From: a virus
Taxonomy: Duplodnaviria > Heunggongvirae > Uroviricota > Caudoviricetes
Direction: 5' to 3' (one strand)
Virus record (IMG/VR): IMGVR_UViG_2917881069_000005
Length of the DNA stretch: 34,239 nucleotides
Positions within the stretch are counted from its first letter, which is position 1. Each line of letters starts with the position of its first letter. The notes beneath the pieces were generated by a model that saw nothing but the letters and a program-made list of their open reading frames with translations, was not told the origin of the DNA and searched no databases. The position numbers and the translations under genes were made by a program. Positions 4,186 to 8,627 of this stretch are shown here, one piece after another.

Positions 4186-4312
4186 TTTGTTCTCCACGTA
4201 TATGCGCTGCACCGCGCTGAATTCTGGTAAAAGGAAGCCCTCACCATCCGGCGATTATTGAGTCAATTACGTTTCCATAAATGCCCCCGCAGGGGCATTT
4301 GCAGTAATGAAA

Positions 4313-5137
4313 TCAGGCGGTGAAAGTACCAATAAAGGTTTCTACTTTGCTGTCTTTGAATTTCTCAACAAGCAGATCACGAAATTCGTTAGCCATTTCT
4401 TCCTGCACTGCTTCCAGCTGAATAATGCGCAGAACCAGTACAGGACGATCGCCAGTGATAATGCTGAGGCGTAATTTAAACGGACGTTCTTTCAGGCCTT
4501 CAAACGGAACGCATTTAAATTCAAATGCCACTGGCATAATGTCTTTGGTTTTCGCTTCGACAGACTCCATCAGGGAGCGTTTGCCGCTGAAGTCATTATC
4601 TTCAAAATCAGCGGTCTTGTTTGCTTCAATCGTGATTTTACGGACTGCCGCAGCCGCTTTTGTTGCCTGAATAGCGTCACCATTAGCATCAAAGCCCACA
4701 AGGTAGTCGGCCCAGTCTTCAATCCATTCTGCCAGTGACTTCTGGGAGTTACGCTCGCCGTTAACAGACAACAGGGCAGAGAACGGTGCTGTCTTTTTCA
4801 GTTTGAGAGTGGCGGTGTTATCTGCGTGACCTGGTTCATCAATAGTACCCAGGTTAAGCACACTGACTGCTCGCATATTATCGGCATCGATAAAGCAGCG
4901 GGTGCCTTCATCTGCAAGATCTTTAGAATAACGGGTAAAGTCATCGATGCTGGCAGTGGAAAGCGCACCACGGAAACGGAAGCGATTTAAATTAAATTTT
5001 TCCAGATCATGAATGCGGAAATTCTCAGGCAATGCCACAGCATCGGCACCAATCTTACTGATAATTTCATTAACACCCTGAGCAGAAATAAGGGCATGGA
5101 TTTGATTAATTGCGGTTGCGTCTAAGTTCTGAGACAT
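4313..5137 (-). CDS. yfdQ: DUF2303 protein, YfdQ-like
   Basis: 274-aa ORF; size, position and sequence character match recollection of E. coli CPS-53 YfdQ. Confidence 0.6.
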
Positions 5138-5202: not shown

Positions 5203-5565
5203 TTAATGACCTGCTGCGCGGAGTTTTCCGTCAGGTTCACCGGCAAGAGTCAGTAATTGTCCCTGGTCTTCCTGCAGAATAGTCAGGCGACCACCGCGAT
5301 TGACATACATCGGCGTTTCGGTGGTGTCTTCTTCGGAAATTTTCCCGCGGTTAGTCGGGCGAACATATGAGAGTTTGTGTTTGATTTTCACACGGTTCTC
5401 ATCAAACGGTTCGATGTCCAGATTGACCGAGACTTTACCTTTGTTTTTCGTGTTCATCACACCGGAAGCGACTTCACTGAGAACTGCGCCGAGTTTGGTT
5501 TCAAATACGCCGCCGTCCAGTTCTACGATAAATTCCTGCACGTTGGTACTGCGTTCGCTAGCCAT
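5203..5565 (-). CDS. hypothetical protein, YfdP-like (120 aa)
   Basis: Start set at internal MASERS with GAGGAG 8 nt upstream (ORF track 5203..5796 is an N-terminally over-extended frame). Confidence 0.5.
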   Translation of the reverse strand: MASERSTNVQEFIVELDGGVFETKLGAVLSEVASGVMNTKNKGKVSVNLDIEPFDENRVKIKHKLSYVRPTNRGKISEEDTTETPMYVNRGGRLTILQEDQGQLLTLAGEPDGKLRAAGH

Positions 5566-5613
5566 TTTGCTGCTCCTCATCATATCGACCCTGCAAGGTC
5601 GGTTGGTTTCTCC

Positions 5614-5746
5614 ACAAAACAGAGAAGAACACCTGCGGTGACTGCCGCCCGGATGGATTGGGTTATGAGCCCGTCGTCCGGTGATGCTCTTCTCTGTTTT
5701 GTAAAAAGGACGGTACCAGCCGGAAGCAAGGGTACAAGCTGGTACC
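5614..5746. promoter_or_regulatory. structured non-coding region: 15-bp perfect inverted repeat with 59-nt spacer plus GGTACC/GGTACAAG operator-like repeats (candidate OL/pL region)
   Basis: ACAAAACAGAGAAGA (about 5614-5628) and TCTTCTCTGTTTTGT (about 5688-5702); GGTACCAGC/GCTGGTACC pair flanking GGTACAAG (about 5712-5746), same half-site as the cI-cro operator. Confidence 0.4.
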
Positions 5747-6198
5747 GCCAACGCAGTGGCAGTTGTGGCGGGGTTGTCACTCAGGCGTATGGTCAACCTG
5801 ACAATCCGGTGTCCTCAACGGGGAAAGAGTAACCCCGCCATACTTACCGCCGCGCCATTTCGCGGATTACCACAACGCTGAGAGCACTTAGCCAGTTACG
5901 GCACCACACTTTGTCGCGGCTCCATAAATGCTCTTATCGTTGCACCCTGGTCTCTTCCCAGGCGTCAAACCGAATCGCCACGCTGGTTAGGCGTCTTATC
6001 AGCATCATCATTGACTTGCACATTCCGGCTACCTGGTTTGTTTGCCCGAGCAAGGAGTGGATTGTCCCCTTTAACGTCCCCAGACCGCTAACGACGCATG
6101 TGCCATACGCCGTGTTACAACCAAATTTTGTTTGAATCTTGCCTGTTGCATGTTTCTTTTGGATACATTATGTATCTCAAAGGTACATTGTCAAGTAT

Positions 6199-6221
6199 AA
6201 AAAAACCTGCCGAAGCAGGTT
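6199..6221 (-). terminator. rho-independent terminator downstream of cI-like repressor gene
   Basis: On minus strand CCTGC-ttcg-GCAGG stem followed by T7 run, immediately after the repressor stop at 6234. Confidence 0.5.
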
Positions 6222-6233
6222 CATAAATATTGA

Positions 6234-6908
6234 TTAGGCCTTTATTTTGTATCTTCTTGGTTTTCCCGAGAAAATCACTGTACCAATTATAGAGCAATTA
6301 CCGTTGATCTTAATGTAAGGTTCAGGCCAGTTTGGGTTTAATGCTTTGAGGTAACGCTGTGTTCCATCTTCTATCAACCGCTTGAAGGTGGTTTCGCCTG
6401 TATCGTGCATCAATGCAATAACGTCGTCACCGTGGCAGGCAGGGACTTCAGGATCAACAAAAATCATGTCTCCCGGGCGGTACTCATCAATCATTGAATC
6501 ACCAATCACCCGCAAGATATAAGTCATTTCGCCACAGGGTACAGGGCAGGGATAAGTTTCTGCTGTGCTCAAATCAACCTCAGAATAGCCAACTTCTTTC
6601 CATGCTCCGGCCTGTACCCATGATATGACAGGGACTAACGTTATTTGTTTGTTAGTGATTGAAACATCAGGTTTTTTTGTGATGTTCGTTGTCTGGTGTT
6701 CTTGATCAAGCCATCCGACAGGCAGGTCGAAACATTTTTCGATGTGCCGTGCCATGCTGTCACCGATATTTTTAGTTGCACCATCTCCCATAAACCTGCT
6801 GGTCTGGGTTGGCTCGCGATCAATCATGGTGGCAAAGGAAGAATTCCCGCCAACACCATCTCTCAGTTTTCTGGCGTTAGACCGCCGGATGTCATGGACT
6901 GTTTTCAT
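6234..6908 (-). CDS. CI-like prophage repressor with LexA-like S24 peptidase domain
   Basis: 224-aa ORF; C-terminal S24 signature (GDSM...GD.IFVDPE, Ser/Lys-dyad-type region); divergent from cro-like gene. Confidence 0.8.
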   Translation of the reverse strand: MKTVHDIRRSNARKLRDGVGGNSSFATMIDREPTQTSRFMGDGATKNIGDSMARHIEKCFDLPVGWLDQEHQTTNITKKPDVSITNKQITLVPVISWVQAGAWKEVGYSEVDLSTAETYPCPVPCGEMTYILRVIGDSMIDEYRPGDMIFVDPEVPACHGDDVIALMHDTGETTFKRLIEDGTQRYLKALNPNWPEPYIKINGNCSIIGTVIFSGKPRRYKIKA

Positions 6909-6998
6909 AATGAAATTAAAACCCTTGTACCGTTAAGGTACAAGTATCTTGAAGGTTCATTTTAATCATGTAATATGTACATCGGAGGTACATATTGT
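6909..6998. promoter_or_regulatory. divergent cI/cro promoter-operator region with two palindromic operators
   Basis: Perfect 21-bp palindrome CTTGTACC-GTTAA-GGTACAAG (about 6923-6943) and ATGTACA-N6-GTACAT (about 6973-6993), the latter overlapping the cro RBS GGAGG. Confidence 0.5.
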
Positions 6999-7199
6999 AT
7001 GAAAGCGTATTGGGACTCTTTAACCAAAGAACAGCAGGGCGAGTTGGCCGGAAAAGTTGGCTCAACACCAGGCTACTTACGGCTGGTTTTCAATGGTTAT
7101 AAAAAAGCCAGTTTTGTGCTGGCTAAAAAACTTGAGCAATGCACGTCAGGTGCAATTACGAAATCTGACTTAAGACCGGATATCTATCCGAAAGATTAA
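6999..7199 (+). CDS. Cro-like HTH regulator (YdaS-like)
   Basis: Start at internal MKAYWD preceded by GGAGG; 66 aa; small HTH protein divergent from repressor. Confidence 0.6.
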   Translation: MKAYWDSLTKEQQGELAGKVGSTPGYLRLVFNGYKKASFVLAKKLEQCTSGAITKSDLRPDIYPKD

Positions 7200-7230: not shown

Positions 7231-7794
7231 ATGAGGCTAACCGTGGGTAAGCATCACTGGAAAGTAGAAAAACAGCCTGAGTGGTACGTGAAAGCTGTCA
7301 GAAAAACTATCGCGGCGTTGCCGGGGGGGTACGCTGAAGCTGCTGAGTGGCTGGATGTAACAGAGAACGCTTTATTCAACCGCCTTCGTGCAGATGGCGA
7401 TCAGATTTTCCCGCTGGGATGGGCAATGATTTTACAGCGCGCGGCTGGCACTCACTACATTGCGGATGCTGTCGCACAGTCTGCTGGTGGGGTGTTTGTA
7501 TCGCTTCCTGAAATTGAGGAAGTAGAGAACGCCGATATAAACCAGCGCCTGCTGGAAGTCATCGAACAGATCGGGAGTTACTCAAAGCAGATTCGTTCGG
7601 CAATCGAAGATGGGGTAGTGGAGCCACACGAGCAGACAGCAATTAATGATGAGTTGTATCTGTCAATTTCGAAGCTCCAGGAGCATGCAGCACTGGTCTA
7701 CAAAATCTTTTGCGCTCCAGAAAAGAGTGACGCCCGCGAGTGTGCAGCTCCGGGCGTCGTGGCGTTTTGTGTCTGTGGAGAAACTAACGCATGA
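7231..7794 (+). CDS. YdaT-like protein (proposed CII-type regulator)
   Basis: 187-aa ORF directly after cro; position and sequence character as in Rac-type ydaS-ydaT pairs. Confidence 0.4.
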   Translation: MRLTVGKHHWKVEKQPEWYVKAVRKTIAALPGGYAEAAEWLDVTENALFNRLRADGDQIFPLGWAMILQRAAGTHYIADAVAQSAGGVFVSLPEIEEVENADINQRLLEVIEQIGSYSKQIRSAIEDGVVEPHEQTAINDELYLSISKLQEHAALVYKIFCAPEKSDARECAAPGVVAFCVCGETNA

Positions 7795-8627
7795 ACAGTT
7801 TAACGGCAAATAATCGTTTGTCGCAACAGCTGGTGGTCAGTGTCGCTGAACACCTGTTGTTACGGCATGAATGCAGATTACCAAATCACCTGGCTGTAAG
7901 TAACCACAGAGAACTTTACCTGACTGTGGGGGGCGAGTTGTGCAGGAACTTAACCGCTGGTTTCGTGACGGAAGAGGGCTTTATGTCCATGTTATTCGTT
8001 GGGAGCCAGAAACACAGCGCGTTATCTATCTTCGCAAAGACTACCCGCATGAGTGCTTTAGTCCTTTGTGGAAATTCAGGCGTGATTTTGTTGAGTGTGA
8101 AGGACCACCAGCACATTGATTCTGCCATTCCGGGACGTTACACTGTTCAGGCACCTTATAAAGCGGGTGCCGGGATTGGCGTCCTGGAATTGCATACGGC
8201 GACAATTGGCGCGTTAGCGTCTTTTTTGTTGCTACAACTCAGCTATACCCAAATTATGGTGGGCTGGGTGGGGGCACCGAAAGGTGCGCCGGTTTCCGTA
8301 TGCGCCGGTTACGCCAACCCTGCTCAGTTCACCACCAGCGAAATTGGCGTTTCCGGTGGTGGAAGTTATCCATTGCATACGGAGGCTGCCATCATGGCTA
8401 CTGTCCCAGCCCTCTCTCGTCTGAATGATGACGACTTACATAAACTCAGTTATGTAACAACTGCACTACGTGCTCTGCGCAAGGTAACTCTTTCGGATCC
8501 GCAGGCGCATCAGGTTCTGGTAGAAACCCTTCTTAACTTGCAGGCTGAACGTATTCGTCTGGCGGATAAGGCTAATTTTCATATTCACCGTCTCCTTAAT
8601 ATCAGCGGAGGGCATCGTCATGCTTAA
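7791..8627 (+). CDS. hypothetical protein
   Basis: 278-aa ORF; ATGA overlap with upstream stop suggests translational coupling; no domain recognised. Confidence 0.4.
   Translation: MNSLTANNRLSQQLVVSVAEHLLLRHECRLPNHLAVSNHRELYLTVGGELCRNLTAGFVTEEGFMSMLFVGSQKHSALSIFAKTTRMSALVLCGNSGVILLSVKDHQHIDSAIPGRYTVQAPYKAGAGIGVLELHTATIGALASFLLLQLSYTQIMVGWVGAPKGAPVSVCAGYANPAQFTTSEIGVSGGGSYPLHTEAAIMATVPALSRLNDDDLHKLSYVTTALRALRKVTLSDPQAHQVLVETLLNLQAERIRLADKANFHIHRLLNISGGHRHA

Follow-up and report, generated by a model that had tools for sequence, protein, structure and literature searches.

What occupies the gap between the repressor gene and the first early-left gene of a lambdoid phage? The question is raised by positions 5566-5900 of IMG/VR record IMGVR_UViG_2917881069_000005, a Caudoviricetes virus whose 34,239 nucleotides, analysed at full length, are called the window here. 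An earlier note, made from the sequence alone, had read this stretch as a non-coding OL/pL control region with operator-like GGTACC repeats and possibly a small antisense or nut-like RNA. We found that it makes up the promoter-distal third of the pL transcript's untranslated leader, 450-600 nt inside it, and that it carries two successive RNA units, namely a module related to the precursor of the small RNA DicF, ending in a terminator-like hairpin (P0), and a second structure, hairpin A, which is apparently an undescribed and widespread RNA with a tip that copies the anticodon arm of initiator tRNA (tRNAfMet). As an overall model we propose, with a probability of about 0.6, that a DicF-type leader module with its terminator is followed by hairpin A as an RNase III processing module.

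The leader is delimited by its two ends (Table 1). Since pL and OL lie at 6151-6194 and the first leftward open reading frame (ORF) begins at 5565, the span from 5566 to ~6160 is an untranslated leader of ~595 nt, read on the minus strand. The promoter is near-consensus, fires leftwards and overlaps OL, and the operator dyad TGTAYC-N5-GGTACA at 0-2 mismatches occurs solely in OR (6926-6992) and OL (6151-6187). The stretch thus does belong to the early-left transcription unit, flanked as the leader is by pL and the first ORF, but the control region itself had been misplaced, the true pL and OL being situated ~450 bp to the right. Its non-coding character held up: none of the three overlapping ORFs in 5566-5900 has a Pfam match, and the third arm of hairpin A varies in relatives by lengths that are not multiples of three, on which grounds a coding reading was rejected. 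For near-identical phages (cdtI, Ayreon, 2H10 and Stx2c phages) the public annotations disagree on small ORFs in the leader or annotate nothing. Strong structure with small RNA elements was likewise borne out, as the minus strand of 5560-5900 folds with a z-score of -6.1; an antisense RNA it is not, since the strand that folds has the sense of the pL transcript itself.

The perfect 15-bp inverted repeat reported previously (ACAAAACAGAGAAGA, 5614-5628, and TCTTCTCTGTTTTGT, 5688-5702, which enclose 59 nt) is located exactly as described, and a repeat search extended it to 25-nt arms (5614-5638 and 5678-5702) that are 84% complementary. Nowhere else in the 34-kb window do perfectly complementary inverted arms of 15 nt or more enclose a loop of 100 nt or less, and no such repeat arose in any of 50 shuffled sequences. 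The repeat is part of the closing stem (stem P1) of hairpin A, a three-way-junction RNA of ~100 nt that also comprises an arm with a conserved tip (P2) and a variable third arm (P3). Stem P1 begins 7 nt after the P0 stem and consists of 20 modelled pairs plus ~5 pairs between the U-tract and GGAGA, giving a predicted closing duplex of 25-30 bp; across relatives 95.5% of it is paired, and it provides the continuous duplex of at least 20 bp (about two helical turns) that is expected of an RNase III hairpin. P3 measures between 14 and ~45 nt in relatives, or is absent, with compensatory changes at two of its four pairs.

A covariance analysis across related prophages, which the earlier note had named as a check, was run and revealed a conserved structure with heavy covariation. 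Relatives were gathered largely by motif. A search with the 21-nt core gave at least 120 IMG/VR contigs, among which 65 versions are distinct, and a relaxed motif brought in at least 120 further contigs from at least five more subfamilies, with equally long P1 stems of unrelated sequence. In an alignment of 43 sequences, 95.6% of cells were paired, as opposed to 41-50% when the partners were slid, ten pairs changed on both sides, and the covariation score was reached by 0 of 500 shuffles. The corresponding figures for 57 distinct sequences from at least six subfamilies were 91.8% against ~40% in shifted controls, most P1 positions showing three to six Watson-Crick or wobble pair types. RNAalifold independently recovered stem P1 and the GGG/CCC hairpin. 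Because G·U pairs outnumber A·C mismatches by 84 to 23 in stem P1, the folded molecule is assigned to the minus strand, i.e. the pL sense, and a covariance model of hairpin A (R1) scored 119.2 bits on this strand versus 42.9 bits on the plus strand. A scan with R1 identified no second copy in the window.

Rfam 15 gave no match for hairpin A in the window or in phages P1, SfV and ST64B, and 5566-5900 remained blank both at the gathering thresholds and at E<=10. A tRNA gene was considered and rejected, as the cloverleaf (acceptor, D, anticodon and T arms) is missing; ARAGORN found 0 tRNA genes in the window, and there was no Rfam tRNA match. Literature searches, of incomplete coverage, yielded no description of hairpin A, and among the phage leader elements covered by them its conserved tRNAfMet-like arm has no described counterpart.

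Three G-C pairs and a CAU anticodon loop are the mark of initiator tRNAs, and just such a stem-loop, three G-C pairs closing the loop CUCAUAA, is found at 5672-5660 within P2. The 13 nucleotides, GGG-CUCAUAA-CCC, are identical to residues 29-41 of E. coli tRNAfMet (GGGCUCAUAACCC; tRNA sequence from PMC8887418), and together with its flanks the tip agrees with this tRNA at 17 of 21 positions. The subfamily consensus is ACGGG-N-UCAUA-N-CCCAAUC, with variation only at loop positions 32 and 38, and the tip is the sole part kept across all subfamilies, members with a short outer stem included. Among 195 instances that were gathered by their flanking stems only, CAU was intact in 194 and the whole 13-mer in 181, although the adjacent P2a pairs drift with compensation; judging from these alignments the tip appears to be under purifying selection while the stems drift. 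Kissing in cis between the CAU loop and a start-codon or Shine-Dalgarno (SD) region was rejected, as a complementary 7-mer within 450 nt was present in 0 of 110 main-class contexts, and for the same reason a trans-acting partner is more likely.

The first RNA unit of the pair opens with domain B, a long irregular hairpin. In prophage Qin its homologue is the 5' part of the 190-nt DicF precursor: window positions 5880-5760 are ~90% identical to K-12 Qin directly upstream of dicF, and domain B is ~90% identical to phage PPompW, where this upstream domain precedes a bona fide DicF (76.7 bits on Rfam, the same as K-12 DicF). The P0 hairpin, GGCGGUACCAGC...GCUGGUACCGUCC and then U5, aligns with the Qin DicF terminator, GGCGGUAUCAG...CUGCCGCCC and U5, and thus shows, with GGCGGUACCAGC/GCUGGUACCGUC before the U5, the GC-rich Rho-independent terminator and U-tract of DicF. 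A GC-rich hairpin followed by T4-7 is retained, with compensatory stem changes, in ~64 of 69 distinct upstream contexts. By this alignment P0 is the positional and sequence homologue of the DicF terminator, i.e. a putative DicF-type intrinsic terminator.

The arms of P0 are the GGTACC repeats. GGTACCAGC (5712-5720) and GCTGGTACC (5738-5746) do flank GGTACAAG (5730-5737), and a repeat search recognised the GGTACC pair as a perfect 10-bp inverted repeat (5711-5720 and 5738-5747). Six 10-bp inverted repeats occur in the window versus 0.8 expected by shuffling, which on its own is weak evidence, but conservation in relatives shows that the repeat is real. The five others, with loops of at most 30 nt, are centred at 1053, 14923, 17821, 26161 and 31153, and the repeat at 17794-17849 matches the hairpin A model weakly, owing to its long stem only. 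In relatives, the GGTACC arms are exchanged for other complementary sequences, e.g. GGCGGCAUC/GAUGCCGC, GUCGGCGUC/GACGCCGAC and GGGGCGGUAACA/UGUUACCGCCC, the pattern expected of an RNA stem rather than of a protein-binding site. The likeness of GGTACA to a half-site of the cI/cro operator (TGTACCGTTAAGGTACA, 6926-6942) is a true identity, but a lone half-site without a partner is background. Near the repeats the 17-bp operator pattern matches solely at 3 mismatches (5712-5728), at which level the window holds 43 matches against 34 expected. As an OL operator, that is a 17-bp tandem dyad overlapping a promoter, 5566-5900 was rejected, there being no promoter nearby.

Despite its ancestry, the first unit (module 1, 5876-5703) is not a DicF member, because covariance model and seed both fail. 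The Rfam DicF model (RF00039, gathering threshold 48 bits) gave no match in 5450-6300, even at E<=10, nor anywhere in the window, and the alignment with Qin leaves a 19-nt gap precisely over the DicF seed UUUCUGGUGACG; where DicF has a single-stranded 5' seed the window has CACAACUGCCACUGCG, which is predicted to be paired. The unit is thus a DicF-paralogous variant of the 190-nt form. Two further candidates were discarded: an AgvB-like anti-GcvB small RNA (sRNA), suggested by a CACAAC motif that is the 3' strand of a closing stem (AgvB itself is unrelated and resides at the pR' moron site), and a tRNA 3'-end remnant at CACCACAAC, for which a closing stem is likewise the explanation.

Published work on dicF describes a small RNA made from a pL-like, repressor-controlled operon, processed by RNase E as well as by RNase III and bound by Hfq. 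Its 5' ends are generated by RNase III in the 190-nt form and by RNase E in the 53-nt one, and its 3' ends by Rho-independent termination (53 nt) or by an RNase III cut of read-through RNA, 19 nt past the terminator (72 nt). The window resembles dicBF in its pL-type operon (pL at 6167-6194) with the ~90% identical precursor domain (5760-5880), in the homologous terminator (GGCGGUAxCAG...) with U5 after both, and in a long duplex that starts 7-8 nt past the terminator in both. It differs in that the 19-nt seed segment is absent, that the hairpin loop and 3' arm are different, and that the domain after the terminator is STnc100-like in Qin and hairpin A in the window. The 72-nt DicF end falls within a 21-bp stem that begins 8 nt after the DicF terminator. 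In Qin (locus L331, 1943-2095) this stem closes an STnc100-like domain (34 bits, sub-threshold) that makes up the dicF-dicB spacer; the 72-nt 3' end is situated in its 5' strand, and its 3' strand stops just before the dicB SD.

STnc100 and PasD (RF02076; Zhu, Shabalina & Storz 2026, preprint) are prophage sRNAs from the same repertoire of structured RNA domains, closed by a stem, that the leaders of prophage operons draw on. Domains like STnc100 are immediate neighbours of hairpin A in SfV, ST64B and phage P1, and take its position in Qin; in SfV and ST64B it is an STnc100-like domain, at sub-threshold scores, that precedes the same terminator. Hairpin A nevertheless differs from them, as it was outside the STnc100 model in every case examined. 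That model (gathering threshold 47 bits) had no match in the window, and the flanking domains of relatives reached only 33-39 bits.

The distribution of hairpin A was assessed in phage and E. coli collections. P0 with hairpin A was found in 2497 of 5426 complete E. coli genomes (46%), with up to five copies each, and over these the NCBI annotation pipeline PGAP reports nothing or a 'hypothetical protein'. A scan of genome contigs with an under-specified 16-base gapped pattern returned 119 chance matches and one true one. Carriers of hairpin A are lambdoid phages of Escherichia, Shigella, Salmonella and Klebsiella, Yersinia phage PY54, and P1/P7-like phage-plasmids, in which it follows a tRNA array directly and runs antisense to upl and plp, two predicted ORFs. 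R1 detected two diverged copies in phage P1 (35 and 30 bits), and the annotated ORFs upl and plp may be spurious. The P1 ban leader also has an annotated 'dicF-like region', tRNAs and an STnc100-like domain. Genes following hairpin A are highly diverse, comprising yfdP-like genes, TerB (tciA), RdgC, a YfbR-like HD hydrolase (HD-phosphohydrolase), excisionase and holins of three Pfam families, the latter directly downstream of late-operon members. The element in front is nearly always a terminator-like hairpin or a tRNA. Hairpin A thus goes with a position, behind a terminator where an operon segment starts, and not with a particular gene; a tie to one gene family was rejected, as a DUF2303 search returned identical relatives only and context clustering gave diverse downstream genes. 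Hairpin A is absent from both K-12 CPS-53, the yfdP prophage, and Qin, so that published RNase III maps of K-12 are unusable for it.

From these parts the proposed sequence of events can be put together. Most pL transcripts would probably end at the U5 after P0 (5703-5707), leaving a leader RNA of ~185 nt or longer, and only transcripts reading through P0 would contain hairpin A. In read-through RNA, RNase III would cut the P1 duplex, as it does in the stem just after the DicF terminator. The cut is proposed because the dicF read-through cut lies in a stem 8 nt after the terminator, and stem P1, the longer and more regular of the two, starts 7 nt past P0. It would separate the sRNA part from the mRNA, set the 5' end of the message of the first early-left gene, and hence its stability or translation, and free the apical domain, whose tip presumably binds a host factor in trans. 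We consider it a tentative idea, and rather doubtful, that tRNA mimicry defines a phage RNA class for counter-defence or translation control, with the RNA binding or decoying a host factor after excision from early- or late-operon leaders. Equally speculative are the candidates that can be named, i.e. VapC-type tRNAfMet nucleases (an anti-toxin or anti-abortive-infection decoy, or a sensor) and the 30S P site with IF3 (a tuning of initiation).

RNase III hairpins are familiar from phages, e.g. the lambda N-leader site, lambda sib and the T7 intercistronic sites. With these, stem P1 shares a near-perfect duplex of 20 bp or more that separates an RNA unit upstream from the cistron that follows, and like the 72-nt DicF end it is present only in read-through transcripts. 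Hairpin A differs from them in that it adds a sequence-conserved, branched apical domain which those sites do not need, in that its cleavage is predicted by analogy, and in that the stems of some members are too short for RNase III.

Several points weigh against the processing model. Cleavage in stem P1 is argued by analogy with dicF-dicB, and we regard it as an even bet. Termination at P0 is likewise suggested by the dicF analogy; the P0 loop is unusually large (17 nt), and a simple terminator scan did not call the hairpin. No N-like gene and no put-like RNA that could carry the polymerase past P0 was found, in a search for N that was not exhaustive. Moreover, a few members upstream of holin genes (L011 and L441) have the same tRNAfMet-like arm and an outer stem of just 6-7 bp, too short for RNase III; because of such holin-proximal members, the conserved core function probably resides in the tRNA-like arm and not in the long duplex. 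The invariance of the tip is itself partly circular, given the motif-based collection, and the independent check covers subfamily 1 only.

The likeliest of the alternatives, which we still consider rather unlikely, is that hairpin A is an autonomous trans-acting RNA in which the excised apical domain mimics the initiator-tRNA anticodon arm and the long stem serves biogenesis and stability only. The initiator anticodon arm is read by the 30S P site with IF3 and by methionyl-tRNA synthetase (MetRS). The RNA would titrate or sense one of these or a VapC-type tRNAfMet nuclease. The retention of the tip alone in all subfamilies, its identity to the tRNAfMet anticodon stem-loop, the independence from the downstream gene and the lack of a nearby cis target for the loop in the 110 main-class contexts all speak for it. 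So does the biology of enteric VapC toxins: those of Shigella and Salmonella cleave tRNAfMet within its anticodon stem-loop (ASL), and all VapCs tested cut ASL-like structures. On the other hand, the case is purely inferential, an RNA embedded in a leader would be vastly outnumbered by cellular tRNAfMet, the stem, unlike that of a real anticodon arm, is broken beneath the three G-C pairs by a C opposite AA, and loop positions 32 and 38 vary.

A precedent for mimicry of this kind in a leader is the thrS operator of E. coli, which mimics the anticodon arm of tRNAThr and binds ThrRS. As in such mimics, the hairpin copies the anticodon stem-loop of a specific tRNA, here tRNAfMet; in contrast to them, hairpin A is phage-borne and independent of the downstream gene, and the mimic is confined to three stem pairs and the loop.

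Control in cis of the translation or stability of the first gene, with no part for RNase III, is in our view unlikely. Hairpin A would then be a 5' stabilising hairpin or a fourU-type switch with the U-tract masking the GGAG-like flank. The element is always in the 5' untranslated region, 20-300 nt before the start codon, the U5 pairs with GGAGA at the base of stem P1, and the conserved 3' flank (GGAGAA/GGUGAA) resembles an SD sequence. Yet this flank has no start codon at a usable distance, the real SD (5573-5578) comes 30 nt later, unpaired with the element, and conservation of the flank may merely reflect ancestry shared with the 5' strand of an STnc100-like domain (UGGUGAAU).

Processive antitermination has low odds as well. 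According to this reading, hairpin A, with a U-rich boxA-like sequence, would modify RNA polymerase in the manner of lambda nut or HK022 put so that the terminators of a long operon are ignored, the lambda-nut version calling, just as improbably, for an N-like factor or Nus factors as partner. Hairpin A shares with nut and put that it is a structured RNA in an early-operon leader, in a lambdoid phage here without an obvious N gene; no recognisable N gene was present between pL and the first gene, so that one would look for a different antitermination device, and some of the long operons that hairpin A heads are late ones, with holin genes next. In close relatives the sequence immediately ahead of stem P1 is CGCUCUUUUUACAA, which is boxA-like by comparison with the boxA consensus. 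The window itself reads GUCCUUUUUACAA, however, with its bases paired within P0 and stem P1. Hairpin A also lies downstream of the very terminator that it would most need to overcome, it is single-copy and without a pR-side partner, and its three-way junction with a 25-bp stem has no sequence or architectural likeness to the published put RNA, a two-stem V-shape at the 5' end. A lambda-type nut site was rejected on the boxA-like bases, which only some relatives have, on the 7-nt tRNA-like loop, which is not a GNRA-like boxB pentaloop, and on the yfdP-like first gene, which is without an arginine-rich motif (again with a search for N that was not exhaustive). An HK022-type put RNA was rejected on the single copy, the different architecture and the absence of similarity to the HK022 pL/putL and pR regions beyond 11-nt chance matches. 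The 'nut-like' part of the earlier suggestion thus has little support.

A DNA-level element (a cruciform, recombination hot-spot or MITE-like repeat) or a functionless, decaying tRNA pseudogene is very improbable. The long palindrome, the shuffling of modules between phages, the adjoining tRNA genes in P1-like phages and the tRNA-like loop would all be accommodated, but arms that are wholly different between subfamilies are still complementary, only one strand folds well (G·U being four times as common as A·C, and R1 giving 119 against 43 bits), the tip is apparently under purifying selection while the stems drift, and ARAGORN sees no tRNA.

Hardly any credence is left for an OL-type operator, in which the GGTACC repeats and the GGTACAAG half-site would bind the CI-like repressor and control pL: for all the identity of GGTACA to the half-site and the location between the repressor gene and the early-left genes, complete 17-bp dyads are confined to OL and OR, the region is 450 bp downstream of the promoter, and the GGTACC hairpin, homologous to an RNA terminator and with arms swapped for unrelated complementary sequences in relatives, excludes such a function in practice.

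Between repressor and early genes, many prophages have what looks like an empty gap and is in fact a string of interchangeable RNA modules (DicF-like, STnc100-like, hairpin A and the module C described below). The dicBF paradigm is thereby extended from one cryptic prophage to active temperate phages. Hairpin A is carried by model phages such as P1, SfV, ST64B, Stx2-converting phages and PY54, and is unnamed in current annotation and in Rfam 15; the covariance model R1 is ready for annotating its loci. The copy of the initiator-tRNA anticodon arm offers a testable handle on phage-host interaction, be it RNA processing, translation initiation or toxin decoying, and if the mimicry is true, an RNA-based counter-defence or translation-control device would be common to lambdoid, P1-like and N15-like phages.

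Table 1. Features of the pL leader and its surroundings, with copies of hairpin A in other phages. Positions are those of the window unless another record is named; for minus-strand elements, paired segments may be given from higher to lower numbers.
Feature	Position	Strand	Basis or remarks
LexA/S24-type, cI-like repressor gene	6234-6908	-	ORF list and Pfam
Cro-like gene	6975-7199	+	
CII-like gene	7231-7791	+	
pL promoter	-35 TTGACA 6194-6189; -10 CATAAT 6172-6167	-	Promoter scan, 11/12 consensus matches
OL, two operator dyads	6151-6167 and 6171-6187		Overlapped by pL
Module C, promoter-proximal conserved part of the leader	5870-6126	-	In phage P1 between trnI and ban
Domain B, long irregular hairpin	5750-5876	-	Arms 5856-5831 and 5775-5750; fold and DicF homology
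Frame of domain B	GUUGUGG 5876-5870; CCACAAC 5768-5762	-	
P0, GGTACC hairpin	5703-5749	-	Arms 5749-5738 and 5720-5709, 17-nt pyrimidine-rich loop, then U5 5707-5703; Qin dicF alignment
Hairpin A, three-way junction	5607-5709	-	Covariance model and covariation
P1, closing stem	5702-5683 with 5633-5614	-	Extended by U5 with GGAGA; contains the 15-bp inverted repeat
P2 arm	5655-5681	-	P2a CCGGA 5681-5677 pairs with UCCGG
Conserved tip of P2, GACGGGCUCAUAACCCAAUCC	5675-5655	-	
P3, variable third arm	5635-5648	-	GCGG-CAGUCA-CCGC
Conserved 3' flank, GGAGAAAC	5606-5613	-	Reads GGUGAAU in other subfamilies; at the P1 base, its GGAGA is paired with the U-tract
Small hairpin CGACCUUGCAGGGUCG	5601-5586	-	Ahead of the first-gene SD
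First pL gene, yfdP-like, 120 aa	5203-5565	-	ATG 5565-5563; SD GAGGAG 5578-5573
DUF2303 gene, after the yfdP-like gene	4313-5137		Pfam
Segment common to SfV, SfII and ST64B	5567-5750		blastn
Segment common to PPompW-type phages	5754-5876		blastn
Segment (module C) common to phiV10, P1, P7 and others	5870-6126		blastn
Hairpin A copies in phage P1	L003 4104-4198 and 4364-4475 (P1 69997-70091 and 69720-69831)	ban operon sense strand	
Hairpin A copy in Yersinia phage PY54	L452 2501-2598		Between methylase gene and holin gene

The leader as a whole is a mosaic, its segments being differently distributed among phages in sensitive blastn searches. In phage P1 the shared segments are part of the ban operon, whose direction of transcription corresponds to the minus strand of the window. 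Module C is a conserved block of ~190-250 nt (e.g. AACCAGGUAGCCGGAAUGUGCAAG and GGCGAUUCGGU). At ~80% identity it is common to P1, P7, D6 and SJ46 (right after tRNA-Ile and before ban, at two places per P1 record), phiV10/TL-2011b, SPN1S, and phages of Klebsiella and Enterobacter. Rfam gave no match for it, and it is probably another unnamed structured RNA. The K-12 prophage CPS-53 (locus L130, 5248-5604) retains only the last ~25 nt of the leader, with SD and ATG, upstream of yfdP, and unrelated repeat-rich sequence (GATTTTGACGGGTCA repeats) takes the place of hairpin A and the DicF-like module.

Further along the early-left operon, a GC-rich palindrome (AAATGCCCCCGCAGGGGCATTT, 4272-4307) separates the DUF2303 gene from the next early-left gene. 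It is a terminator according to the Ayreon annotation, and would be a second barrier for early-left transcription. Lastly, on the plus strand downstream of the cII-like gene and within a long ORF (7791-8627), Rfam identified isrK (8151-8227, 61 bits) beside a C4 antisense RNA (8252-8339, 81 bits), the two spanning 8151-8339. In this lambdoid phage, the pair resembles the immI-type (c4-icd-ant) antirepressor control module of P1 and P7.

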